A DNA stretch of 43,583 bases from a virus. Taxonomy: Duplodnaviria > Caudoviricetes. Positions 2,685 to 22,145 of the stretch are shown piece by piece (the stretch's first letter is position 1; each line of letters starts with the position of its first letter). Made by a program: the position numbers and the translations under genes. The stretch is taken from positions 1 to 43,583 of the IMG/VR virus record IMGVR_UViG_3300048849_000133. The stretch is one strand, 5' to 3'. Below the pieces are notes generated by a model. The model ran no database searches, was not told where the DNA came from, and saw only the letters and a program-made list of their open reading frames with translations.

Positions 2685-3038
2685 CTACACCGTACTAACT
2701 GGTTTCTTCGCCAGTGATCGCTTGCCGTATTGATACACACCAAAGACTGCAGCGAGCGCCGCCGTGAACCATCCGTACCAAGCTTCAAGTCCTCCGGACT
2801 TAGGAGTTGATCTGATCACGTTCACCGCATCAATGACCGTAGCCTTCAGGGCGGGATCGGTTAATGCTTTGCCGACTGACAAAAGGCTGTCCGTGAGATT
2901 TTTTTCATTGCCAGAGAAAACCTGACCTGATACAACGATTGTACTATCCGTTTGTTCCTGTGCCTTCACCTGGATCGGGTGAAGTGCTGACATAGCCATG
3001 AAGCTAATCAACATTAAAGCTGTTCTTAATTTATTCAT
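2685..3038 (-). CDS. Exported/membrane protein of the lysis module (signal peptide plus C-terminal TM)
   Basis: N-terminal MNKLRTALMLISFMAMSALHPIQVKA|Q; C-terminal WYGWFTAALAAVFGVYQY followed by a basic tail; last gene of the late unit. Confidence 0.65.
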   Translation of the reverse strand: MNKLRTALMLISFMAMSALHPIQVKAQEQTDSTIVVSGQVFSGNEKNLTDSLLSVGKALTDPALKATVIDAVNVIRSTPKSGGLEAWYGWFTAALAAVFGVYQYGKRSLAKKPVSTV

Positions 3039-3041
3039 TGT

Positions 3042-3827
3042 TTAAAATCTTAATATATCGTAACTCGCATTTACACTAGGCTGCCATTTAGAGTTATTCG
3101 GGTACCTGCTGTATCTTCCTTGAATGCTGAATCTCCCGAGGTCAACCCGAACTGCTGGCCCGACCCCTAAAAGGCCAGTCTCGAAGTTATATGAGGTGTT
3201 TGCCTGAAGCTTTAAATCAAAGGCCGAAGGCTTCTCCTTTATAGTAAGTGTCTTTACTCCTTTGATGGTTACCCTAGGGTCATTGGAGTAGATATCGATA
3301 TAGCTGTTGTTTTGACCGAATAGCCATGTTTTCTTACGGTATTGCGTAGTAGAGAGGTCCGCATTGTATGCAAGGCTGAATGTAGCCCCAATGAGACTAT
3401 CCTTCGGTACGTTTACAGAAAGCGTGGCGTAATTGTCAGTATGACTATAGGTTGTCGCTAGAGCACTTATTTTCCGTTCAAGCTTCTGGTTCTTAATTTC
3501 CAGTGACGAGGCCACAACTGTAATTTGCTTTATTTTATCTCGGGCAATTCCAAGAGCGGCCACGGTGTCAAGCAGATCTGCTGATACTTTGTCAAGTGCT
3601 GACTGATCCATTTCCTTGACTATCTTGAAAACGGTGTGCTGTAGCCCATTCTTGCTTACCTCCGTAGATATCTGCTTCGCCTCTGTCTCAATTTCCTTTT
3701 TCTTAAGTTCGGCAATAGGGCTGCTTACGGACTTTTCCGGAGTTTTTGTACTGAGTCTAATGGTGTACCAACAAACTGCAGCCAATATGATGGCCAGGCC
3801 TAAAATTAGTTTACTTGATGTTTTCAT
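3042..3827 (-). CDS. Membrane-anchored coiled-coil/beta protein, candidate spanin-like lysis protein
   Basis: N-terminal TM, coiled-coil middle, amphipathic beta-strand C-terminus ending SYDILRF; lies downstream of the endolysin. Confidence 0.55.
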   Translation of the reverse strand: MKTSSKLILGLAIILAAVCWYTIRLSTKTPEKSVSSPIAELKKKEIETEAKQISTEVSKNGLQHTVFKIVKEMDQSALDKVSADLLDTVAALGIARDKIKQITVVASSLEIKNQKLERKISALATTYSHTDNYATLSVNVPKDSLIGATFSLAYNADLSTTQYRKKTWLFGQNNSYIDIYSNDPRVTIKGVKTLTIKEKPSAFDLKLQANTSYNFETGLLGVGPAVRVDLGRFSIQGRYSRYPNNSKWQPSVNASYDILRF

Positions 3828-4132: not shown

Positions 4133-4714
4133 TCATGCTGCGTCATATTGATTAAGCCGGCTTAACCAGGATCGTAAGAATTGCGCTTGATCCCCTGTAG
4201 CCCATGACCTATAGGCGGCTTCGCGAGCATCATTGTATTTTTTCAAAATGATTTTAGGGTTTGATTTATTAACCAAGGCAATTACTTGCGGATCCATGAT
4301 GCCGTCTTTCTTCAATCCAAAAATCTGTTCAAGAAATTGAACTGCTCGACCTTTGCCAGAATTCACACCGAAGTCATAAACAGAATTGGCTATCTGCTGA
4401 TCTTCGATCTGATCAAGTTTGTTAGCGAGCCAAAACTCTACCCTGTAAAATTCAGACACAAGCTCTTTCATCCCTTGGGACGGGACTTTTGCGGAAGCAT
4501 TTATCCATTGGGTAAGCGTAAATCTCTTTTTTAGTGCGGGGCTTAACTTTGGATATTCAGCCTTATATTTATCAATCTTTTTCCACCCTTTCCAGGTAGA
4601 CCAAAAGTTACGAGCAATGCCGGCGTAGGTTTCACCACCCCGATCTGATTTGTTATTGGCGTAACCGCCCTCGTTTATACCAGTTAATCTTTCTGCTACA
4701 TCGAAATTTGCCAT
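4133..4714 (-). CDS. Endolysin, glycoside hydrolase family 108 with peptidoglycan-binding C-terminus
   Basis: EGGYANNKSDRGGETYAGI catalytic motif, YDFGVNSG, and C-terminal FLRSWLSRL. Confidence 0.9.
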   Translation of the reverse strand: MANFDVAERLTGINEGGYANNKSDRGGETYAGIARNFWSTWKGWKKIDKYKAEYPKLSPALKKRFTLTQWINASAKVPSQGMKELVSEFYRVEFWLANKLDQIEDQQIANSVYDFGVNSGKGRAVQFLEQIFGLKKDGIMDPQVIALVNKSNPKIILKKYNDAREAAYRSWATGDQAQFLRSWLSRLNQYDAA

Positions 4715-4720
4715 GCTTTT

Positions 4721-7168
4721 TTATTTAACTGTGTACATAAATGAATACGAGATACTTCCGTTTCCGGCTGAAGACGCGTAAAACAATATGCTGGCCTTAT
4801 CGCCGGCCACGTTTCCTGTCACTCTTGTGTTTGTAGCGACTCCGCTCCCCGAGGACGCCACCCCAGATAAATCGTCCGTAATAGTGAAGTTAGACGCTAC
4901 AGGAATCGATAAATAGACTTCTGTGAATGCCACTCCGGGCCACGTAATGCCTAGCTGTCCGTAAACAGTTACCTGATCCCCTACTCGGGTGTAATGCGCA
5001 ATTGTAGGTACTGAGCTGGTGTAATTCGAGACTCCGGTAACGGTCGGCGTATAGGTGCCGGAACTACCGGCGGCCGCATTAAGCTGGCCGAGTGTCGCAA
5101 GTTGGTTTGTGTTTGTTGCCGGTGAGGCGGTAACGGCTCCGCTAAATGCCGCATCACCGGACGTAGATATAGAAAATTTTTTACTGCCGTTTAAGCGCAC
5201 TACAAAATCCGAAATACTTGTGTTTGCACTTCTTGTAGCCCCAACCTGCCAAGCGTCTGAATACCAAGTATATTCATGCCCTGTTACTAGATCCCCTGTT
5301 AAGGACGAGTTGGTAGGTAGATACGTCCTTACTTCCCGGGTATCGGTATTGATCGGGCCTGTAGATTTGAAACTAGGGGCTGTTAGGCCTCCGGTTAAAG
5401 TTCCGCCTGTTAAAGGCAGGTAGTTGTCAGGGTTGAAGTTTCCGCTATGATAAAGAAGATTCCAAGTTCCCGAACCCCCGTCCCCGTTCACTCTTGCATA
5501 GATAGGGCCATTTTTGTTTTGAGAAGTGCTAAATTGCGTGGTGTATTGGTTCACTCCATAAGATAGGAACGTCCCGAAAGTATTCCCAGTAGGGACATTT
5601 GTAGCGTTAAATAATTTACCGGCTCCCGTCTGGTTATCCATGTTTGCGTCTATAGTTACGTTACCGAGAACAGGGAGGTAAGCTCCACTAGATGTGTACG
5701 CCGCAGTACCTAAACCTAAAAAAGACTGAACGGCCCCCACTGGGTATTGCCGCATTATATCGTTATTAGCATCTCGCCCAAACATTTGATACATACCCGT
5801 TGTAGGCGAGGCCACATCGTCTAAAGTCCAGTTTTTCCAAGTAGTTGCATTTGACGCAGTACCTGTAAGCGATCCTGAAAAAGTTGGCGCGGTAACCGTT
5901 CCTGAAAAAGTTGGGGAGGCTATATTTGCCTTCAAATTAAGGGCGGTTTGTCCGGCTGTGCTTACCGGCTTTGCCGCATCGCTTGTATTATCCACATTAG
6001 CTAAGCCAAGTGTTGATTTAGTCAGGTTTCCAGAATGGTAAATATCAAACGTTTTGTACTTAAATTGTGTAACGTTGGCTTTTACTATATCCGTTGCGCT
6101 CGTTCCATCCCACTTTCTAAACAGAAAACCTTCTGTTCCTCCGGATCCTGTTGATACGTTATCCCCGGCCTCAAATATTAAGTTTGAATCTCCCACATCA
6201 TCCCCCGAGCTTTCATAATATATTTTTCCGTAGTCCGAGTTTTTAGTGAATAGCGCGCCTTTACCGGCAGCGGGATTGAAGTTACCGCCAAACGTACCGT
6301 AAACCACATCGCCTGTCATTACCCCGCCTGCAAGATCCAGTTTTAAGCCTAATGCAGTTGATGTAGCGACACTCACCGGCTTTGCCGCGTCAGATGTATT
6401 ATCGACGTTTGAAAGTCCAATGTCAGCCTTAGTAAGATTTACGTTGCCGCTCTGACCATTGACCGATTGTACCGCATCTGTAGGGGTTAATAGTTCCTGC
6501 CAGTTACTTAAGACAGAGGCGGGCGATTGAGTGAGGATAAACGATTTGCTTATATCTGTCCTGACAGCAACATCCCCCTGGTCCGCTCCGCTTATAGCGA
6601 GCATCGAAGCCTGTGAGGCTACCGGGAATGTCTCTGAAATAGCCAACGCCGGAATTTGGCTGTTTGGAACCTTTCCGTCTGCTCCAAGGGTAGCAACTCC
6701 ATTTGTTACGCCCTTTTGGGATGTGTTTATTTTCGAATCTAAGGCTGTTTGTAAGCCGGAAACCGTGCTGATTGCCTGCGTACCGGTGTGATTTGTTCGG
6801 CTTAATAGGTACGCGTCTGTTTGGTTGGCTGTTGCTCCTATCGCAATTCCAGCAAGCTTCGTTTTCTCCGGCGTGGTATAGTCATTTGTTGACAGGCCTT
6901 TTCCGGCTACTGCGTCCACCTTCAAAGCAAGCTTACCATCTGTTACTGTTTTACTGTAGTAATTCGCATTTAGTAAGCTGTCGATGATGCTTTGCTGAGT
7001 AACGACCCGGAACGTCTTGCCGCTGGCACCGACGATTACAGTCCCTGCGGCATTTTTGTAGTACTGTGTGCCGTATGGCGTAAAGCCCGCCGGTATGGAT
7101 GTATAGGTCTGGGCAAGCCCGGAAAGCCCGATCAGCGTAAATAAAATAAGTAAAAGTTGTCTTTTCAT
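4721..7168 (-). CDS. Tail/head fibre-like protein with N-terminal Sec signal peptide
   Basis: Fibre motifs GKGLSTNDYT, GVATLGADGKVP, VQSVNGQSGNV, two copies of GLxNVDNTSDAAKPVS, and C-terminal GTYTPT...YTRVGDQVTV tip domain; N-terminus MKRQLLLILFTLIGLSGLA|Q. Confidence 0.8.
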   Translation of the reverse strand: MKRQLLLILFTLIGLSGLAQTYTSIPAGFTPYGTQYYKNAAGTVIVGASGKTFRVVTQQSIIDSLLNANYYSKTVTDGKLALKVDAVAGKGLSTNDYTTPEKTKLAGIAIGATANQTDAYLLSRTNHTGTQAISTVSGLQTALDSKINTSQKGVTNGVATLGADGKVPNSQIPALAISETFPVASQASMLAISGADQGDVAVRTDISKSFILTQSPASVLSNWQELLTPTDAVQSVNGQSGNVNLTKADIGLSNVDNTSDAAKPVSVATSTALGLKLDLAGGVMTGDVVYGTFGGNFNPAAGKGALFTKNSDYGKIYYESSGDDVGDSNLIFEAGDNVSTGSGGTEGFLFRKWDGTSATDIVKANVTQFKYKTFDIYHSGNLTKSTLGLANVDNTSDAAKPVSTAGQTALNLKANIASPTFSGTVTAPTFSGSLTGTASNATTWKNWTLDDVASPTTGMYQMFGRDANNDIMRQYPVGAVQSFLGLGTAAYTSSGAYLPVLGNVTIDANMDNQTGAGKLFNATNVPTGNTFGTFLSYGVNQYTTQFSTSQNKNGPIYARVNGDGGSGTWNLLYHSGNFNPDNYLPLTGGTLTGGLTAPSFKSTGPINTDTREVRTYLPTNSSLTGDLVTGHEYTWYSDAWQVGATRSANTSISDFVVRLNGSKKFSISTSGDAAFSGAVTASPATNTNQLATLGQLNAAAGSSGTYTPTVTGVSNYTSSVPTIAHYTRVGDQVTVYGQLGITWPGVAFTEVYLSIPVASNFTITDDLSGVASSGSGVATNTRVTGNVAGDKASILFYASSAGNGSISYSFMYTVK

Positions 7169-7169
7169 G

Positions 7170-7562
7170 TTATATAATTGTTATCGTTCCAGGGAACACT
7201 TCTGTAATACTTACCATTTGAATGATTCCGTTTGACATTGTGTAGGAATACCCCGGCTTGTAGCCTCTGAATATGTCCCCATCCACGTAAGTCCCTTCGA
7301 TGTTACCGATCGAGTTGCCATGCTTTTCAGCAAAAGTTTTTGCGTCACCAGGAACAAGATCTGTCTGCCAATTTATACTCAGGTCCGTGGAAACAGGAAG
7401 TATCGTTTCTCTGGTCGCCATCTCCTTAAGGAGTATAATTATGGCTTTACTAATTATTGTATTCAGCTCTGAACCTTTGATCGGCGGTAACCTTGGCGTT
7501 TTTAAATACTCATCAACAGCGAGAAGCAATTCGTCAACCGTCGAAATGTCCTGTAGATCCAT
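7170..7562 (-). CDS. Hypothetical protein (possible fibre adaptor/chaperone)
   Basis: 130-aa ORF separated by 1 nt from each of the two flanking fibre genes. Confidence 0.6.
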   Translation of the reverse strand: MDLQDISTVDELLLAVDEYLKTPRLPPIKGSELNTIISKAIIILLKEMATRETILPVSTDLSINWQTDLVPGDAKTFAEKHGNSIGNIEGTYVDGDIFRGYKPGYSYTMSNGIIQMVSITEVFPGTITII

Positions 7563-7563
7563 A

Positions 7564-8535
7564 CTAAGCTTTGATTAGTGGAAGAAGTCCAATATTTTTT
7601 GGGCGGGTCTCGGGTCCACCCGTAAGGGATGTATTGATTGTCCGGCCGTTGCCACCTGGCACCATGACATTTCGGTCGTTCGCATTATCACTTTGTCCGG
7701 ATTTGTCATCCGGAGCAATATTGTGGCTGTGAGATTTTAGTTCATCCGGTTCATAGCCCCCCGCATTCTCAGAATTTCTACCATAAGTAATACCTGCACC
7801 AAGGTCCAAGCCCCGGATAAACATCGATCTTAAATCAGGAACCCTAAATGTTGTCAACCCATTTCCGGAAGAAAAGAAACCGCGGTTGCCCGGTTGATTA
7901 GTCCAGGTCACATCATTGATCAGCGCGCCACCTACCGTTTGTATGTACTCCCAAAGCCTCGGGTACTCCAAGCGGCCATGAAGTTTTCCATCTGCAATAA
8001 CAGTATTTGGCAATTGTGAATAGGCGAATAATTGCGTTCCTACGTCATAGAAATTACCGCAATATTCTGATAAAAACCACCCGCCATTATAAGATGTTAA
8101 TTCGATGCTGTCAACGTTGCCTAGGAATAATTTTGCCCTGAGACTACCGTCATTCCCAGCGATGATCGTGTTTCCGTTGCCTGAGTCAATAACGACCTGA
8201 GCATTTACATTGCGCGCCACTATCCGGACCTTAAGCCCACTGTCTTTATTATCGATATTTGGCAAGATCAACCTGTACTCTTGAAAATTTGCATCAACAG
8301 CAACCAGTTTACCGAAGACATCTTCCCATGTAAGCAGTTTATTATTGCCTTCGGATCTCAATGCGTTTGTAATCCCCGTAAAACCACGTAGCGCTTGCTT
8401 AAGCCACTGTGTCCGGTTCGCAAGTTGCTTTAATGGAAGATTATCAATGCCGTCAGGTCCGCCAAGAACGACATCTGTGGTTTCGAATTGGTAAACATTC
8501 TCTTCCCATATTTCCTCACCAGGTAAGTTTGCCAT
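7564..8535 (-). CDS. Tail fibre protein with tail-collar domain
   Basis: N-terminal VLGGPDGIDNLPLKQLANRTQWLK baseplate-attachment motif; C-terminal GNGLTTFRVPDLRSMFIRG, SHSH and GGPETRPKNI collar motifs. Confidence 0.85.
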   Translation of the reverse strand: MANLPGEEIWEENVYQFETTDVVLGGPDGIDNLPLKQLANRTQWLKQALRGFTGITNALRSEGNNKLLTWEDVFGKLVAVDANFQEYRLILPNIDNKDSGLKVRIVARNVNAQVVIDSGNGNTIIAGNDGSLRAKLFLGNVDSIELTSYNGGWFLSEYCGNFYDVGTQLFAYSQLPNTVIADGKLHGRLEYPRLWEYIQTVGGALINDVTWTNQPGNRGFFSSGNGLTTFRVPDLRSMFIRGLDLGAGITYGRNSENAGGYEPDELKSHSHNIAPDDKSGQSDNANDRNVMVPGGNGRTINTSLTGGPETRPKNIGLLPLIKA

Positions 8536-8540
8536 CGTAA

Positions 8541-8981
8541 TTAGTTAAAAGTTATTTTCCATGAACCAACAAGACGAACTGCGGAAGTTTTTACAATGTC
8601 CGTCCTTACTTTTCTTGCACACAAAACGCCGTCTACGTTTAAAAGGCCAAATTCTCTAATGATCATCCCGTTGGCATCTTCCGCTTCGATCGACCAGTTA
8701 AACTTTACCGAGTTCAACGCCGGGTAATCCACCGAGGTGATGGCTTTAGTAAACGGGGCGGTGATCGCAGCATCAGCCAGAGCAGGCGAGGTGCCATTTG
8801 TTCCTAAACTAATTTTGTCAATCCTTTTACCCTGCAGATCACCGCCAAGAAGTCTTGCCAGATTGTTGTGGCCTAAGATCACCACCAGGTTCTTTTCCTG
8901 GAACTCGCTCAAAACAGCTCCGCTTTCAACATCTATAACTTCCATAAAGAAGCTACCGGCCACTTTTAAATTTTCTTTCAT
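8541..8981 (-). CDS. Tail fibre/baseplate attachment protein (P2 gpH N-terminal-like)
   Basis: ISLGTNG...DANGMIIREFGLLNVDGVLCARK pattern; follows gpI. Confidence 0.7.
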   Translation of the reverse strand: MKENLKVAGSFFMEVIDVESGAVLSEFQEKNLVVILGHNNLARLLGGDLQGKRIDKISLGTNGTSPALADAAITAPFTKAITSVDYPALNSVKFNWSIEAEDANGMIIREFGLLNVDGVLCARKVRTDIVKTSAVRLVGSWKITFN

Positions 8982-9640
8982 ACTGTTATAATTTCTATGT
9001 CCAGCACATCGCTATCTGAACTGTAATTCTTTTCTCCGTTCCTTAGATATACTCCATTGTGCTTAAAATCTCCACCAGAGAAAATGATGTCTTCATCATC
9101 TACCGATGGGTTTTCTGTACTGTATTCAGATACAATCACAGGATCATCGCCAAGGTCAATCGTATAGGTCAGGTCAACTAGGTGACTTCTTGTGTTTTTG
9201 AATTCATTCACCATCTTGGTGATTTCCTCAATGGCATCCGCACTTACAATATGGTCACCGGCATTCAGTTCAATCCTAAATGTAGCCCAGCCGTTGACTC
9301 CGCTTGAGACATGCTCAACAAGAACAGCATCCGGGTACCCAATTGATTTCAAAGCCTCTTCCACTGCCCAGACCGTACCTTTATATCGCTTTAGTTCAAT
9401 GGCTCGTTTAATTACTTCCCTTTGCTGCTCTTCGGTTTTCGCCAGTCGAATCCCTTTATATCCAAGTACGTCAAACTGAGCCGCCAGTAAAGGAAGCGCA
9501 CTGGCATCGACCGTGTCAATCACGTAAATCAGCAGCTTCTCGACTTCAAATTTTTCCAGTCGGTTTTTTACGATTGTATCAAAGGCGACAAAATGCTGTA
9601 TGTCAGCGATTGCACTAGCCAGAATATTATTATCACTCAT
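8978..9640 (-). CDS. Phage tail protein I (P2 gpI-like)
   Basis: LPLLAAQFDV...IKRAIELKRYKGTVWAVEEAL...KNTRSHL motifs. Confidence 0.88.
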   Translation of the reverse strand: MSDNNILASAIADIQHFVAFDTIVKNRLEKFEVEKLLIYVIDTVDASALPLLAAQFDVLGYKGIRLAKTEEQQREVIKRAIELKRYKGTVWAVEEALKSIGYPDAVLVEHVSSGVNGWATFRIELNAGDHIVSADAIEEITKMVNEFKNTRSHLVDLTYTIDLGDDPVIVSEYSTENPSVDDEDIIFSGGDFKHNGVYLRNGEKNYSSDSDVLDIEIITV

Positions 9641-10742: not shown

Positions 10743-11701
10743 TAGCTAACTGTTAAAATTGCCGAGGTGTATTTATCGGTCTGAAAAAATAGATATCGCT
10801 CCACGTGTACACCGCCCTTATCAAAATCTGTATTGAAATCAACATCAAAATCGCCGGTCGTTATTACCGCGCCGCTGTTCTTAATGGACCAAGTACCGAA
10901 AAAAGCCCAGGTAGTCTGCACCCAGAATAGGAGCTGCTCAGCAGTATTAAATGTATTTTCAGGGAATAAAGGTGTTGCATTAAGGCCATCCACAGCAAGA
11001 GATAACTTGTAGAATTCTCCTGGAGAAAGGGACCTGATGTAGGATGCCCTTGTAATTATCGCAGATTGACTAACAACCAAAGTTGCTTTCTTTGCGACCC
11101 CTGGCTTTAAATACAATACGAGCTTTCCAGCGGTCAAGTACCACTGGCCATAGCCAAAGTAGTTTTCTTTCACCCAGGCAAGCAGTTCAGTCGGCGTATC
11201 AAATCCATAAGATGGGGGAGCGGGATAGGCTTGGCTATCGTCTACAATAAAGAAAACACTATACCTGCCTGTAGGCACTTTCCCTGGTATCAATGCGGAC
11301 AAGATTATTCCGGAAACCTGCGGTGAAGAATCCGATAGCACGCCAGCTTGAGACCAAATTAAAGTGTTTAACAGGTCACTATCCAGGGTCGTGAAAGTAA
11401 TAGAGAAGAAAAGCTGTGACTCCCGTGTTTCATGCACAATCGAAACGATCTGGATCCTTGTTTCCCAAAGACTAACCGCTTCAAAAATTGCTCTTTTGAT
11501 GTTCGGGATTGCAACATTAGTTGGTTTATCAACGTAATCGAATACATCGCTCCCAAACAAGGGGCGGAGCGGGTCAGAACCCGGGATGGTTCGCAGGATA
11601 AAATCTATACACTGGCGAATGTCACTGATGCCCGTAGCAATTGCACCCACACCGATGGAAGATAGTTGGTAATTGGTGTACGTGGTTGCTATTTCTGTCA
11701 T
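10742..11701 (-). CDS. Baseplate wedge gpW/gp25-like protein with long C-terminal extension
   Basis: N-terminal DIRQCIDFILRTIPGSDPLRPLFGS...WETRI gp25 motif, then about 200 extra residues. Confidence 0.82.
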   Translation of the reverse strand: MTEIATTYTNYQLSSIGVGAIATGISDIRQCIDFILRTIPGSDPLRPLFGSDVFDYVDKPTNVAIPNIKRAIFEAVSLWETRIQIVSIVHETRESQLFFSITFTTLDSDLLNTLIWSQAGVLSDSSPQVSGIILSALIPGKVPTGRYSVFFIVDDSQAYPAPPSYGFDTPTELLAWVKENYFGYGQWYLTAGKLVLYLKPGVAKKATLVVSQSAIITRASYIRSLSPGEFYKLSLAVDGLNATPLFPENTFNTAEQLLFWVQTTWAFFGTWSIKNSGAVITTGDFDVDFNTDFDKGGVHVERYLFFQTDKYTSAILTVS

Positions 11702-12348: not shown

Positions 12349-13412
12349 TATTTCACTTTGTAGTTAGTCGTTTTATGCTGCATCCGTTTAGGTAACTTTT
12401 TACCTGGAGCATCTGTAATGTTAATCCGTTTGATCTCTACGTCTGTGGTGTAACCTCCATTGCCGATCGCATGGGTCGAAGTTAAAATGTGCCAGATGCC
12501 GGAAAAGGCACCAAAGCCAGTTAGATCGATATTGTTGCCTGAAATCAAAAGCACATTACCAGGCGCACTGAACCCGCCGGTTTGCTGCAGGCTGACTTTC
12601 TTATGGATGTACGCCTGCGCCTTGATGGTTGCCTGCTGCTCATTCTCTACTTTTTCCCATATCTCCAGGGTATCAAGCTGATCTGTATATTCCTTTTGCT
12701 CTCCGGAGAAACTGGCGGGCTGACTGGCGCTAACAATTTTATTGGTGTTTGGATTATGGAACCTGATCTGGGTACCTTTAAAAACATCTGAAGTCTTATC
12801 CCTGAATCCATAACCGGTTACTTCCGTTTTGTCCACAATCAAAGATGAAGATCGGGCCTCCAGTTCAGTCTGCTTTATAAATACGATCGTCTTATTTTTG
12901 ATGGTAAAATTGTACCCGTACTCCGATGCCAGCCGGTGGAGATACTGAAGGTCACTCTCCCTGTTTTGGGTGGAGCGGGCGATGCGTACATTTTCAATAC
13001 TTCCGATAACCGTAAAGCCAATCTTAGCAGCAATCGAATGAACAATCTCAGAGAGGGTTTTATTTTCATGCGCGTATCCTTTGCGGGTTCGCATCTTGCC
13101 GTAATACCCGCTGGAAAGTGCTTTAATCACAACCTGATCAGGAGGCCCGGAAAATTCTATCTGGTCAATCTGAAACACCCCGCAGTCCAGCTCCTTGCCA
13201 TCAATGCCGATCGTAACGGTGAGCAAAGATCCCTTCTCCGGATACCACTGGTTTTGCCATTTTCCTTCCTTGTCTTCCAGGGTAATTTCCATCTCATCAC
13301 TTTCGCCGCTCACCTTATCAATGTAGGTCAGTGCGATCAGGCTCACAGAAACATCACTGGTGATATTTTTGGTATTGTATAGGATCTTGAAATATGGTGT
13401 TGAAATTTGCAT
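12348..13412 (-). CDS. Baseplate hub (P2 gpD / late control D-like)
   Basis: DKVSGESDEMEITLED, CGVFQIDQIEFSGPP and QNRESDLQYLHRLA motifs. Confidence 0.9.
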   Translation of the reverse strand: MQISTPYFKILYNTKNITSDVSVSLIALTYIDKVSGESDEMEITLEDKEGKWQNQWYPEKGSLLTVTIGIDGKELDCGVFQIDQIEFSGPPDQVVIKALSSGYYGKMRTRKGYAHENKTLSEIVHSIAAKIGFTVIGSIENVRIARSTQNRESDLQYLHRLASEYGYNFTIKNKTIVFIKQTELEARSSSLIVDKTEVTGYGFRDKTSDVFKGTQIRFHNPNTNKIVSASQPASFSGEQKEYTDQLDTLEIWEKVENEQQATIKAQAYIHKKVSLQQTGGFSAPGNVLLISGNNIDLTGFGAFSGIWHILTSTHAIGNGGYTTDVEIKRINITDAPGKKLPKRMQHKTTNYKVK

Positions 13413-13413
13413 A

Positions 13414-13638
13414 TTATAAAATAACCTTCCAGGGAGGTAACAATTCAGCGTCTGTCAACACAACGGCCTGGTCCTGGACCGGGATATTAAGAATGGTGCC
13501 TGGTGGCAGAACATCTGAAATGGACACCTCGGGATTTGCGCTGATGAGTAATTCAGAAAGACCGGCATTCCCATACGCTTTGTAGGCGATGTTATCCCAG
13601 CGTTCGTTTTGTAAAGTGGTATATTGTAAAACAGCCAT
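13414..13638 (-). CDS. Tail protein X (LysM-like)
   Basis: YTTLQNERWDNIAYKAYG...ANP...LPPW motif. Confidence 0.9.
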   Translation of the reverse strand: MAVLQYTTLQNERWDNIAYKAYGNAGLSELLISANPEVSISDVLPPGTILNIPVQDQAVVLTDAELLPPWKVIL

Positions 13639-13639
13639 T

Positions 13640-14488
13640 TTATTTTCTTAAAATTATCTTTTTAAGCAGCGCATCCGACGCGCGCGACAATGACCTGGTC
13701 GTTTCCCGCAGCTCTGTGTTTTTGCTTACTGCAGCTGCGATATCAGAAAACGGATAGGAGGTAATGATACCGTTGAAGTTTGACAGCATAACCTCAGCAA
13801 CCGTCTTAAGGTTAGGGTGCTCGGCCAGTACCGAAAGGTTATTCTCTAGTTTGTCTTTTAAAGTAGTTAAAGACACCCGACCCTTATTTGCCGCGTCCAG
13901 AACTTTAGCCGCAGTAATGCTATTTGGATTATTCTCCATAACCGAAACCATTTCATCAACCTTATCAGATTGTTGCTTACTCTCGGTTATCGATGTTGCA
14001 ATTTGTTTTTCGATGCTTGGGGCCTGTGGGTTGCGAAGTACAACAGGTTTTTTATCACCAACGGCAAATGCAGACCGGCGGGCAGCAAGTTGTTTTTGCT
14101 CAAGCTTGTTAATGCTGACGTATTCTTTAAGCGACAGCTGGACGGTAAGTTGCTTGAATGTTCCGTCGTCAAACGCATCATCTACCACGTAAGGCAAGGA
14201 AACAATTACAAAGTCCCCAATGTATTGACCATTACCCAGCAGTAGAGGTAGAACTTCACCACTTTCTTTGAACGCTTTCAGGCGCTGCAGCTGCACGCCG
14301 GGATTACAAAAACGCATGTGCATGTTTATGCTGGCGGAAATTTCAAGCAGGGAACTACCTACTCTTTGAATCGTTGGTTTATTTCCGACAAGTTCAAATT
14401 CCGCATAGTTTGCCTCATCGCCATCAAAGTTGAGGTCTGAGGGACCATATAGGCCTGTAAAAACAATATTTCCTAATTGTGCAAACAT
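13640..14488 (-). CDS. Tail tube initiator (P2 gpU-like) with helical C-terminal extension
   Basis: MFAQLGNIVF...KPTIQRVG...LLLGNGQYIGDFVI...LSLKEY, then about 150 extra residues. Confidence 0.85.
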   Translation of the reverse strand: MFAQLGNIVFTGLYGPSDLNFDGDEANYAEFELVGNKPTIQRVGSSLLEISASINMHMRFCNPGVQLQRLKAFKESGEVLPLLLGNGQYIGDFVIVSLPYVVDDAFDDGTFKQLTVQLSLKEYVSINKLEQKQLAARRSAFAVGDKKPVVLRNPQAPSIEKQIATSITESKQQSDKVDEMVSVMENNPNSITAAKVLDAANKGRVSLTTLKDKLENNLSVLAEHPNLKTVAEVMLSNFNGIITSYPFSDIAAAVSKNTELRETTRSLSRASDALLKKIILRK

Positions 14489-16353
14489 TAGTACGCCACT
14501 CTTTTTTTGTTCAAATTATGTTCTTTTACGATCTTAATGACATGTGGCGTTAGAGCGTCAGCAATCAGCTTTGCGTCTTTTTTGGTCGCCGAGCCGTTCA
14601 AGTGAATTACTGGAGCAAACGTCATTAACTTTGTCGAATTGGTGGGTCCGAACTCCGGTGCCTTAATCTGGAAGCCAGAAACCCTACTTGCCGGGGTTGC
14701 TGCCGTCGAAGTTTTATCAGCAATCTCCGAAGCCGTCCGTGCGGTACTGGTCGCCATAGATGCTTTATAAGCAAGATCAAAGGATTTATTTGTAAAGATG
14801 TCCTGGGCTGCTTTAGCTGATTGTTCGACCCCTTCCATAAACATAGCCGGGTTGAAGGTGAAAGCGCCAATAATTGTTTTTCCAATACCTATGAACAAGT
14901 CCAGTAAAACCCTACCTGCTGCGATCACCCCGTCAATAAATGCCCGAAAGGCATCACAGTGCTTGTACAAAAGGATAAATCCAGCAATCAAGGCCGCGAC
15001 ACCGGCAACGACCCAATAAACAGGGTTAGCGAGGAAAGCAAGATTCATAGCTCGGAGGGCCATAGTCAAGCTGCCCGTGGTAGTTGCGCCGACCAAAGTG
15101 GCCGTAGAATAAGCAAGTTGCCCTGCCCTCAGCCACTTCAATCCTGTAGTTGTCACGGCGATAACTTTGAACACGCCACCGAAAGCAAATGATAAGGCAC
15201 TCACCGTAAAAGAAAGTGCGGCCGCACCGGCAACGGCTTTAAAGATCGTTGCATTTAGTTCCTTGTGGCTCCGCATCCAATCCGATACGGATTGAACGAT
15301 CGGACGTAGTGTAGCGAGCAGCTCCAGGATAACCGGAAGCCCGTTTGTGCCAAAGTCCAAAACAATCCTATTGAATTCAGCCCAGCCTTTTGCCATCTTC
15401 CCTTTAGTTGTGGAATTCCGGTTCTCAAATTCTTTTTGAACGCTATTAAGGAAGCTGGTTTCATCTGCAACAGACCCGACTGAAGCCTTCAACTGGTCCA
15501 TGTTCCCAGCCATAGACATGAGCTCGGTACTATACTCGCCAAACTGCTTGAAATACTGAAATTTTTTCCCCGGATCTGAGATACTTGCCCCTTTCTCCAG
15601 TACCGACATAAACCCGGACATACCTTCACCAGACCTGGTGAAGATATCGCGTGCACCATTGTTCTTCATGATCCCTTTATAGAAACGCTCTACGATGGTT
15701 GCACTTTCCGCACCGGACTTCCCAACCGATATCAGGTATGATCCCATTGCGGCTAAATCTTTACCGGCAGTTCTGGAATTTCGAGCAACTCCGGCTCCAC
15801 CCGCAGCCATAAAGTCTAATATTTCTGACGCTTTTGAAGCCTGATTGTCGGACAGGTAATTAATTGCATCGGAGACCTTCTTCGTTTCATCCCAGCTGCT
15901 GTTCAGCGCGTTCTTAAGTTTGGTATAACGGTCACCGGCGATATCAGCGGAAAGATCAAAGGCGACAGCAATCTGGCCTGCAGATTTGGATACTTTATCC
16001 AGGTCACTTTGCGCGACGCCACCCTGACCAAGGGACGCCATTAAGGCCGCACTCTCGTTAGCGCTCTTGCTCAGGTAGACTGAGAGATCCTTTGCCTGTT
16101 CACCCAGCTGCAGAAAGGTAGAATCACCGATTTTGGTATTGTACACTTTTGCCACATCAGCCATTTTATCTTCGAACTCTATCGCTTTATTCGTAGCATA
16201 GATGATCGGTGCTGCAAAAGCAGCTCCCGTAATGGCTGACGTTTTTCCGAAGTTAAATGCATTCTTGGCGTTCTTGTTCGCCTTATTGACAACAGCGGTC
16301 ATCTTATCTATGGCTGTTAGGATAACCGCTATTTTAATATTCTTGTCCGCCAT
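14488..16353 (-). CDS. Tail tape measure protein
   Basis: AIEFEDKMADVAK and DAINYLSDN motifs, Ala-rich helical sequence with hydrophobic stretches; follows the chaperone genes. Confidence 0.92.
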   Translation of the reverse strand: MADKNIKIAVILTAIDKMTAVVNKANKNAKNAFNFGKTSAITGAAFAAPIIYATNKAIEFEDKMADVAKVYNTKIGDSTFLQLGEQAKDLSVYLSKSANESAALMASLGQGGVAQSDLDKVSKSAGQIAVAFDLSADIAGDRYTKLKNALNSSWDETKKVSDAINYLSDNQASKASEILDFMAAGGAGVARNSRTAGKDLAAMGSYLISVGKSGAESATIVERFYKGIMKNNGARDIFTRSGEGMSGFMSVLEKGASISDPGKKFQYFKQFGEYSTELMSMAGNMDQLKASVGSVADETSFLNSVQKEFENRNSTTKGKMAKGWAEFNRIVLDFGTNGLPVILELLATLRPIVQSVSDWMRSHKELNATIFKAVAGAAALSFTVSALSFAFGGVFKVIAVTTTGLKWLRAGQLAYSTATLVGATTTGSLTMALRAMNLAFLANPVYWVVAGVAALIAGFILLYKHCDAFRAFIDGVIAAGRVLLDLFIGIGKTIIGAFTFNPAMFMEGVEQSAKAAQDIFTNKSFDLAYKASMATSTARTASEIADKTSTAATPASRVSGFQIKAPEFGPTNSTKLMTFAPVIHLNGSATKKDAKLIADALTPHVIKIVKEHNLNKKRVAY

Positions 16354-20201: not shown

Positions 20202-22145
20202 TTACACACCTGGGTTCAAATAGACCCCTCTGTGTTCTTCGATGGTGGCAGCAAAGTCTGTACGAACTTTAATGTCCAGGTCATCAGTTTTAAAATTTAA
20301 TTCCTGCTCTGTGTACAAACCTTCTTGTCCGTTAAGGAAAGCGTATTGAACCACCGGAATGCTTGCAGGATCTGCGGTAACATACCACTTGGTCGGGCTG
20401 TCTAAATACGGATCAACGATCACTTCGAAAGCGTTGAAAAAAGGATTCGCAACAGCAGTCGTACCGGGTGTGATTTGAGCGGAAACAAGTTGCCATGCAA
20501 TTGTTTCAAGTTCAGGAGGAACAACCAGGTATTTCGGGCGTACGATAATCTTTTCACCAGTCATACCTTTTTGCCTGCGCATTGCAAGGCGAGCTGCAGT
20601 TAACGACTCAATACTTAGAACCGAACCAGCTGCTGCAAGATTGCTGTGGGCTGCATCAAATAGGTTCTTGCCGTCTGACAATTTACGGCCAAGTCCGTTG
20701 TTCGCAGTAAGTAAGCCAAATACGATTTCCGCCTGCAGTTCTGCTGCACCACGACCAAACAATTCAGTATACCTCATGAATCCACCCAAATCATCATTTA
20801 TTATGGCATGACGAGTTATACTGATTGTACGACCGTAGGTGTCAAGTTTGAAGTTATCTCCGGTTTCGACCATTTTGGCTTGCTTGTACTCTCCGCCCTC
20901 CTGAATTTTCAGAAGCTTGAAGTCACCACCAATACCTACGCTTGACATCGCCTTGAAGTCGGATGCAGATTGTTTCCGTGCAAATTTTCTCCATTCCGGC
21001 GTGGCGATTTCATAAGCAGCACGCAAGGAGCGGTTAATAGTATTGCCCAGCAAGATCGGGTAATCACTGGTCGACATAGCACGTTTCACCAGTTCATCCC
21101 TACTGATACTTCCAGGTGATAGAATAACACCATTTGAACGCAAAGACATGGCGGCCATATCCAAGAGTGTAGCATGGCGCATTTCTTTAGCCTTATCTGA
21201 ACGAAGTTCATGAGATGGATCATGTCTGTGCATCAGGACCTCTTCCATCGCCGAGCGAACCTGTTGACCTTCATCATTAGTGATGGTTCCAACATGTGCA
21301 GTGATTGCTGGCGGAGTCTGCGCCTCGACCAGTTTCGTAATGATCTGGGCCCTTGCCGCGTCTACTGATATTCCTTGGGAAATCAATCCGTCCAAGAAAG
21401 GCTGATCATTGATGTTAGCAGTACGGACTGCTAGTGTAATTTCTGATACACGAGTACGCTCAAGTTGAATACCTTGTTCGGTAGTCGCAACAGTTTCTGG
21501 TGCAACCGGTGGTGTAGCAGTTCTTTTCTGTTCAGCAAGTGCTGCCGCTGCTGCGATTTCTTCTGGGGTCATTGTTCTTGTATTTTGTGTAAATGTTATT
21601 TCGTGAAATTTCTGGGCGGTTTGTTTTGGATCTTCGTTCGATCGCACACCAGACGCATAGTCAACCGGCACTGAGCAGACCGACAATTCGCCCGGCTCCC
21701 AGTCTTCAACCCGAACGGAATATGTATTCGTATCCTCGTTTTCTGTTACTGTAGTTTCATGAATGCGGTACCCGACGGAAATGTTAGTTATAATGCCATC
21801 AATGATATCGCCCACAATACCTGCGACTTCTTGCCTTTTTGAAAGTCGAATAGTCGCTTTACACTCGTTGTTTTCAACCCAAGCCCTGGAGACCACTCCA
21901 TAAATGGTGTTGACGCTATAGGTTGAATGCGTGTCAACCAGGTTGGCGCCGGAATTCGCCCGTTCAAGTCGGACGGATTCAGGGGTGCAAATAAGTTTCT
22001 CGGAATATTTCGTGCCGTCCCACATTACCCGTTTAGCTTCGACCTCTGTAGCAAAAACAACCTCGATAGTACGATCGGTTTCATTATAACTGTTTGCAGT
22101 TATATTGGCTCGTACATAGGAAGGAATTTTAAACGTTTTATTCAT
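20202..22145 (-). CDS. Prohead protease / major capsid protein fusion (HK97-type protease plus Mu gpT-like capsid)
   Basis: N-terminal LVDTH, NISVGYRI and WEPGELSVCSVPVD protease motifs; C-terminal STSDYPILL, EGGEYK, TYGRTISITRHAIINDDLG and PKYLVVPPELE capsid motifs. Confidence 0.93.
   Translation of the reverse strand: MNKTFKIPSYVRANITANSYNETDRTIEVVFATEVEAKRVMWDGTKYSEKLICTPESVRLERANSGANLVDTHSTYSVNTIYGVVSRAWVENNECKATIRLSKRQEVAGIVGDIIDGIITNISVGYRIHETTVTENEDTNTYSVRVEDWEPGELSVCSVPVDYASGVRSNEDPKQTAQKFHEITFTQNTRTMTPEEIAAAAALAEQKRTATPPVAPETVATTEQGIQLERTRVSEITLAVRTANINDQPFLDGLISQGISVDAARAQIITKLVEAQTPPAITAHVGTITNDEGQQVRSAMEEVLMHRHDPSHELRSDKAKEMRHATLLDMAAMSLRSNGVILSPGSISRDELVKRAMSTSDYPILLGNTINRSLRAAYEIATPEWRKFARKQSASDFKAMSSVGIGGDFKLLKIQEGGEYKQAKMVETGDNFKLDTYGRTISITRHAIINDDLGGFMRYTELFGRGAAELQAEIVFGLLTANNGLGRKLSDGKNLFDAAHSNLAAAGSVLSIESLTAARLAMRRQKGMTGEKIIVRPKYLVVPPELETIAWQLVSAQITPGTTAVANPFFNAFEVIVDPYLDSPTKWYVTADPASIPVVQYAFLNGQEGLYTEQELNFKTDDLDIKVRTDFAATIEEHRGVYLNPGV

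Follow-up and report, generated by a model that had tools for sequence, protein, structure and literature searches.

Virions of tailed phages are built in the cytoplasm. In the long fibres of T4, the gp9 tailspikes of P22 and the branched tailspike systems the receptor-binding trimer attaches last, via an N-terminal domain, and all these parts are made in the cytoplasm and have no signal peptide. For the extracytoplasmic proteins of Bacteroidota, cleavage by signal peptidase I (SPase I) followed by pyroglutamate formation is well established. The Q-rule describes the Gln found at position +1 of SPase I substrates in Bacteroidetes (PMC5837995). Signal peptides have also been noticed in phages of such bacteria, namely as Q-rule signal-peptide genes of unknown function in the Porphyromonas gingivalis 'Nixviridae' prophages (PMC10367356) and, mentioned in passing, on lyase-bearing proteins of the flavophages Ingeline and Nekkels (PMC8776804) and on proteins of rumen Bacteroides phages (PMC5723332). 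In Cellulophaga phage phi10:1 (KC821618) gp091-gp094 are annotated as structural by tandem mass spectrometry (MS/MS). Its gp091-gp095 have leaders followed by Gln (Q+1 leaders), on which the GenBank record makes no comment, and the upstream structural gp090 is leaderless. Here we analyse a fibre protein with a leader of this type and the small gene preceding it in a 43.6-kb IMG/VR provirus, 99% complete (IMGVR_UViG_3300048849_000133, positions 1 to 43,583; this whole stretch is referred to as the window).

Fibre protein and its leader

The gene and the parts of its product are as follows.

4721-7168, minus strand: 815-residue fibre protein of mosaic build that starts with a Sec/SPase I-type leader (ATG start; PHROG matches)
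7112-7168, minus strand: leader peptide, residues 1-19, with predicted cleavage before Gln20 according to the Q-rule (heuristic and conservation in homologues)
6959-7111, minus strand: conserved mature N-domain ('PYG' domain), residues 20-70, a proposed docking domain (profile search; predicted local distance difference test score, pLDDT, about 90 for residues 21-60)
6974-6982, minus strand: D63-S64-L65, candidate host O-glycosylation site (sole D[ST][AILVMT] motif of the fibre)
5960-6904, minus strand: shaft modules, residues 89-403, common to phage minor-tail and fibre proteins (PHROG and phage-record matches)
4724-5068, minus strand: C-terminal tip, residues ~701-815, with a predicted viral receptor-binding head fold (fold comparison of the predicted model)

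The fibre is very probably exported via its Sec-type leader. Leader calls rest on an in-house heuristic (n-region charge, 8-residue hydropathy, the residues at -3 and -1, and Gln+1) and on conservation. By this heuristic the window leader has an n-region charge of +2, a best 8-residue hydropathy of 3.29, Ala at -1, Gly at -3 and Gln20 at +1, in agreement with an earlier sequence-only reading of this DNA, which had described a Sec leader with Gln+1. Of the 28 late open reading frames (ORFs) of the window, the fibre ORF and 2685-3038 are the only two to unite basic residues at the start, a hydrophobic core, and Gln following small residues. As that reading had also stated, 1 nt separates the end of the upstream ORF 7170-7562 from the fibre ATG, and the next methionine, placed about 190 residues in, is Met189. 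Within codons 1-200 the possible start codons are ATG1, TTG82, GTG84, TTG175 and ATG189 only, and therefore any later start would remove the conserved N-domain.

Homologues were searched for with a profile of the mature N-domain only, leader excluded, which was built from 6 sequences and compared with 1.84 billion representatives. It gave 70 matches, from which 4 multi-stretch, repeat-driven rows (domain scores 9-15 bits) were dropped. The signal peptide proved to be conserved: leader and Gln+1 are present in 61 of the remaining 66 homologues and in all 14 distinct loci read. Full Q+1 leaders are found in 55 members, and in 6 the leader is truncated, meaning that the small-residue-Gln junction is kept and the start was called inside the leader (P0179 was assigned here by eye). 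The Gln+1 follows small residues in all 61 leader-bearing members. Five members have no leader, and they are also devoid of the small-residue-Gln junction that mis-called starts retain.

Features of other surface-protein routes were not detected. The C-terminal domain (CTD) of type IX secretion system (T9SS) substrates had zero matches in NCBIfam (P0001 and 39 other family members) or Pfam, the C-termini being fibre tips, and the MAT N-domain NF053851 had none in P0001 and 39 other family members. No lipobox was seen, as P0001 is without Cys and residues 16-26 of P0122-P0186 have none, and a second hydrophobic segment is missing in 64/65 family members. Since all four are lacking, the fibre should be soluble in the periplasm once cleaved.

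Bacteroidetes attach glycans to their extracytoplasmic proteins at D(S/T)x, and one enzyme of the O-glycosylation pathway is functional in Pedobacter (PMC8698959). The window fibre contains one D[ST][AILVMT] motif against 4.3 expected, i.e., with no overall enrichment. A DSL-type motif, which was part of the search profile and is located in a helix, closes the N-domain in 58 of the 60 scorable leader-bearing members and in none of the 5 leaderless ones. Ser64 is probably glycosylated in the periplasm, judging from this motif. The depletion of D[ST]x in the shaft was considered as evidence of export and rejected, because the ratio is 0.58 both in leader-bearing members (96/166) and in leaderless fibre-like controls (356/611) and the depletion is thus generic to fibres. 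On a tree from the short alignment the leaderless label changes 3 times, at least 2 of the changes being forced by well-supported branches. Two of the 5 leaderless N-domain proteins carry SASA or pectate-lyase-like domains, and leaderless P0164 was not found in the viral contigs. Such a switch of leader and DSL motif appears to be new.

Alternatively, the leader might have no part in export. Left uncleaved it could tether the fibre to a membrane, or it could act as an assembly peptide, and the fibre would join particles at the inner membrane or in the cytoplasm. This would agree with the cytoplasmic building of tailed-phage virions and with the existence of leaderless relatives, and the leader call is heuristic. 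It is at odds with the invariable Gln+1 after small residues, which fits the SPase I Q-rule, and with the DS motif that tracks the leader, and we consider it improbable.

The rest of the protein is phage-like. All motifs from which the sequence-only reading had recognised fibre modules were located in the ORF: GKGLSTNDYT at residues 89-98, GVATLGADGKVP at 157-168, GLxNVDNTSDAAKPVS at 251-266 and 388-403, DYGKIYYE at 312-319, FLFR at 348-351, GTYTPT at 704-709 and YTRVGDQVTV at 726-735. The protein has zero matches in Pfam or NCBIfam and matches 25 PHROG families, including minor tail and tail fibre families, and its shaft matches minor-tail and fibre proteins in 790 phage records. In the AlphaFold monomer model residues ~20-65 and ~700-815 are confident and the region between them is poor (mean pLDDT 54). 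The tip model folds like a viral receptor-binding head, the comparisons being with avian reovirus sigmaC (2jjl; Z 10.8, root-mean-square deviation 3.0, 121 aligned), the Dettilon tailspike head (6f7k; Z 9.6, 3.1, 112) and Listeria PSA gp15 (6r5w; Z 8.3, 3.2, 106). Foldseek agrees on this fold with weak E-values. The bodies of the N-domain family are mosaics of GDSL, SASA, BNR, beta-helix and S74 modules, and many members contain glycan-modifying enzymes. We infer that the fibre is a homotrimer.

The partner gene and its WQTD domain

The ORF directly upstream of the fibre gene has no leader and ends in a small domain, named WQTD here.

7170-7562, minus strand: 130-residue leaderless partner, a helical N-module followed by a C-terminal all-beta 'WQTD' domain, a proposed virion-side adaptor (locus comparison and model)
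7173-7382, minus strand: WQTD domain, residues ~61-130 (alignment; pLDDT 90-97)

The 14 distinct N-domain loci that were read are the window, L002, L004, L005, L006 (the same as L014), L007, L010, L015, L029, L030, L031, L032, L033 and L035. All of them are phage-type, and in 13 the fibre gene follows a tail-block gene, the exception being L030, a remnant. Its fibre gene may have been retained by the host. An ORF ending in the WQTD domain lies upstream of the fibre gene in 11/14 loci, including the window, and its end is -4 to +10 nt from the fibre ATG. The domain is ~70 residues long, has invariant W, T, G and G, and is predicted to be all-beta with pLDDT 90-97. Phages with the WQTD-fibre pair have tails that are P2-like (window), with a Mu-like hub (L002) or of the tape-measure/tube type (L004-L007), and they use five different endolysin PHROG families. 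The WQTD domain is the only neighbour of the fibre that is common to the unrelated tail types. The pairing of a WQTD adaptor with an exported fibre appears to be new.

No partner bears a leader. Its N-terminal part is variable, helical modules, short beta modules and tail-type proteins replacing one another. In L032 the WQTD domain is joined C-terminally to a 706-residue putative tail protein. Homologues of this protein (E 1e-82 or better) are encoded ahead of the fibre in L029 and L031, where they end in a different C-terminal module. Comparison of that module, a possible second kind of adaptor, with the C-termini of other family members gave a weak result (probability 33%, E 5e-4). In L033 the WQTD domain is joined in the same way to a protein that matches a tail-collar-fibre PHROG.

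Searches starting from the partner yielded a fibre directly downstream in one of two new viral loci, L010. The other, L011, is a weaker match, having a WQTD-like domain at 7659-8213 and a different Q+1-leader protein at 13760-16204, 5.5 kb downstream past an opposite-strand gene block. Among 401 genomes of the family, the WQTD domain is present in 3, each time beside the fibre (of these, G001 is part of the alignment and G002 had been known before). The N-domain occurs in 6 of these 401 genomes, always in a phage-type context, and in 1/401 of a phylum-wide sample, that one being the centre genome itself. In addition, the WQTD protein P0198 and the leaderless fibre-esterase P0177 are recorded on one 37,680-base Logan contig, which suggests that the pair may also serve a cytoplasmic fibre.

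Fold searches with the model of the 130-residue partner gave no clear match; the helical N-module filled the list, and the best row in the WQTD range had Z 4.3 (5axg). No cultured phage with a WQTD or PYG domain was found in the phage collection searched, apart from one row with E=2. For homology of the helical N-module of the window adaptor to those of L007 and L015 or to P0025 and P0030, hhalign gave no support (probability below 1%). L016 (Lyngbya) was left out, its pattern match being due to chance.

Some further observations concern the same loci. In L002 a second leader-bearing fibre-like gene (12905-14383) stands right after the first and ahead of the lysis genes. In L004, a complete 40-kb phage genome, the tail operon is interrupted by small opposite-strand genes (5940-8890), which separate the large tail gene from a second tail-tube gene. 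A short acidic peptide was noticed in a tail protein of the window.

10814-10855, minus strand: FxxDFxxDF-type acidic peptide within the extension at the C-terminus of the gp25 wedge protein (speculative adaptor attachment site)

An FxxxFxxxF acidic peptide is present in a tail protein of 3/12 loci, i.e., the window, L007 (~9024) and L015 (~8987). These are the three loci whose adaptor starts with a helical-looking module, and the peptide could be an attachment site.

Genomic context and alternative roles

The window encodes lambda-type portal and terminase, sheath and tube proteins and a P2-like baseplate (Pfam). Its late operon on the minus strand proceeds from the baseplate genes to the collar fibre, the 130-residue ORF, the 815-residue ORF and the endolysin.

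7564-8535, minus strand: leaderless tail fibre of the conventional collar type (PHROG matches for tail fibre and collar)
4133-4714, minus strand: GH108 endolysin, start of the lysis block (PF05838)

The collar-type fibre had been pointed out from the sequence, and the PHROG matches bear this out. The adjoining claim, that the 815-residue fibre gene abuts the endolysin, holds for the window but not as a general rule, as the endolysin of L029 lies on the upstream side of the tail gene, an order also seen in L031. The host of the window is likely a member of Sphingobacteriaceae, because relatives of the fibre gene sit in Pedobacter zeae DSM 100774 (NZ_JACIEF010000002.1, locus L014) and in one Sphingobacteriaceae metagenome-assembled genome. 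A sequencing-run lookup listed one DNA run and zero RNA runs as carrying the sequence.

The exported fibre might also stay free, accumulating in the periplasm until lysis sets it loose to mask or strip the receptors of debris and neighbour cells, as a decoy or as an esterase or lyase, the WQTD protein doing something else. A fibre that is soluble after cleavage, the collar fibre already available in the window, the glycan-modifying enzymes of many family members and the position of the fibre gene just ahead of the lysis block in most loci would all be compatible with such a role. What it leaves unexplained is the coupled partner in 11/14 loci, the fusion of WQTD to tail-type proteins and the N-domain on leaderless proteins; moreover, in L007 and L015 the stretch from the large tail gene to the lysis genes has no other fibre-like gene. 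We regard a free decoy as rather unlikely.

Lysogenic conversion is another conceivable role, in which the fibre would be an adhesin on the host surface like the MAT fibres of Bdellovibrio or chromosomal leader-bearing fibres of Bacteroidota. The architecture is that of MATs, i.e., a leader, a conserved N-domain and a mosaic trimeric fibre (PMC10769870). The same shaft repeats are found in ~23 leader-bearing, apparently chromosomal Bacteroidota proteins (P0004, P0049, P0034, P0087 and similar), of which P0004 and P0049 match NF053851 weakly, and an intact fibre copy persists in the remnant L030. In this chromosomal-type group D[ST]x is far rarer than expected (38 observed, 135 expected). Neither MAT_N nor a T9SS CTD, a lipobox or an anchor was found in the fibre family, and its N-domain is confined to phage-type contexts in the 6/401 family genomes and to a single one of the 401 phylum genomes. 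The fibre gene also lies 1 nt behind a late gene, and a search of its strand at 2-28 kb of the window found no promoter pattern of the Bacteroidota -33/-7 kind. A surface adhesin therefore seems quite improbable.

Other genes of the window deserve a brief mention. Besides a second Q+1 leader (Q27), the 117-residue lysis-block protein of 2685-3038 (minus strand) carries D[ST]x twice and, at the C-terminus, a hydrophobic segment followed by a basic tail; it looks like a periplasm-facing membrane protein. The neighbouring 3042-3827 (minus strand) encodes 261 residues, beginning with a hydrophobic stretch that contains a lipobox-like Cys19 and continuing through a coiled-coil-like part to alternating beta strands that end in Phe; it has no Pfam or PHROG matches and might be an unusual spanin or outer-membrane lysis protein. 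The 647-residue capsid gene product of 20202-22145 (minus strand), with the capsid domain from ~residue 355, is probably a protease-capsid fusion.

Proposed assembly at lysis

We propose the following pathway. The fibre would be made with the Sec-type leader, exported to the periplasm, cleaved before Gln20 and glycosylated at Ser64. The leaderless WQTD partner would meanwhile be carried on the cytoplasm-built tail, and once lysis mixes the compartments, the N-domain of the fibre would dock onto it. Surplus free fibre could also serve as a decoy. Trimer formation, the place of the adaptor on the baseplate, the binding of adaptor and fibre and their joining at lysis are all inferred steps of this pathway. 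That the exported fibre docks on the WQTD adaptor at lysis is in our judgement an evenly balanced proposition. The wider scheme is a two-compartment assembly in Sphingobacteriaceae-type phages, whose tail fibre would be split into a cytoplasmic WQTD adaptor and an exported, glycosylated PYG fibre snapping together at lysis, the same pair serving cytoplasmic fibres and export being switched by gain or loss of the leader and the glycosylation site; its chances fall just short of even.

Of the three roles that the sequence-only reading had left for an exported fibre, namely joining particles at lysis, a decoy and an adhesin, the first gains most, because the leaderless partner is coupled in 11/14 loci, the N-domain is also borne by leaderless fibre-enzymes, and phi10:1 has leader-bearing virion proteins. 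Export itself, on which all three depend, is well supported. The adhesin role comes out weakest, as the searches for a T9SS CTD, a lipobox, a second membrane segment and a MAT N-domain were negative.

Several observations weigh against docking on the WQTD partner. The similarities of WQTD and N-domain co-vary weakly (Mantel rho 0.25, p 0.10, 10 loci). No WQTD gene is present in 3/14 fibre loci (L029, L031 and L030), and 1/12 WQTD loci (L011) has no adjacent fibre. In L030 an intact leader-bearing fibre (6917-9466, minus strand) stands in a remnant with an integrase and a phrog_1599 gene and no tail genes, and the window already encodes the leaderless collar fibre. The DSL motif may be conserved for helix structure instead of glycosylation, and the leaderless status of the 5 members is taken from protein records. 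As for phi10:1, it has no WQTD or PYG domain, and the MS/MS detection in purified particles could be due to co-purification. Part of this evidence would also suit an exported fibre that joins the virion at lysis through another virion protein, such as the gp25 extension, the collar fibre or a capsid cement protein, with WQTD linked to it by mere co-inheritance. The weak Mantel test, the other C-terminal module upstream in L029 and L031 and the missing WQTD of phi10:1 point in that direction; since WQTD is the only neighbour shared between unrelated tail types, we hold this explanation to be highly improbable.

If docking on the WQTD adaptor at lysis is correct, the assembly of tailed phages gains a new step, consisting of periplasmic maturation, a host glycan and docking at lysis, as opposed to completion in the cytoplasm. 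Host range would then be tied to the last host, through its machinery for export and glycosylation. The scheme could also account for the Q-rule genes noted in phages of Bacteroidota and for the structural proteins with leaders in Cellulophaga phages. It is directly testable, as a pair of domains is specified (about 70 and 45 residues) and a cultured carrier, P. zeae DSM 100774, exists. A literature search, confined largely to open papers and to their main texts, gave no account of Sec-exported phage fibres joining virions, and passages of PMC12923769, PMC12355684, PMC3338817 and PMC11946311 had nothing to add.

Comparison with known systems

Similarly to T4 long fibres and P22 gp9, the window fibre is proposed to attach late through its N-terminal domain; unlike them, it has a signal peptide. 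The likeness of its tip (model residues 691-815) to reovirus sigmaC and sigma1, Listeria PSA gp15, lactococcal receptor-binding protein heads and Dettilon gp208 (Z 8-11) is one of fold only, the identity being 7-13%.

The gene order of phi10:1 gp090-gp095 is like that of the window, a leaderless small gene (structural in phi10:1) being followed by Q+1-leader genes, five in phi10:1 and one in the window. Its gp091 shares the VxSVxGxxGxVxLT shaft motif with the window fibre, and the tips are weakly similar (domain E 1e-4 among 7 proteins). The Nixviridae and flavophage genes resemble that of the window fibre in that they, too, belong to phages of Bacteroidota and encode SPase I leaders of the host type. 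In the passages considered (PMC10367356; PMC8776804) they are treated as genes of unknown function or as host-modifying, and neither a fibre/adaptor pair nor virion docking is proposed.

The MAT fibres of Bdellovibrio (PMC10769870; NF053851) share with the fibre family a signal peptide, a conserved N-domain, a mosaic phage-like fibre and variable tips, S74 included (present in P0039). They differ in being chromosomal cell-surface adhesins with an N-domain of ~130 residues, whereas the family described here has the ~45-residue PYG domain, no match to NF053851 and genes in phage late operons. In its proposed working the fibre resembles both an adaptor-docked secondary fibre and a MAT fibre, and it is not a MAT, a T9SS substrate or a lipoprotein.

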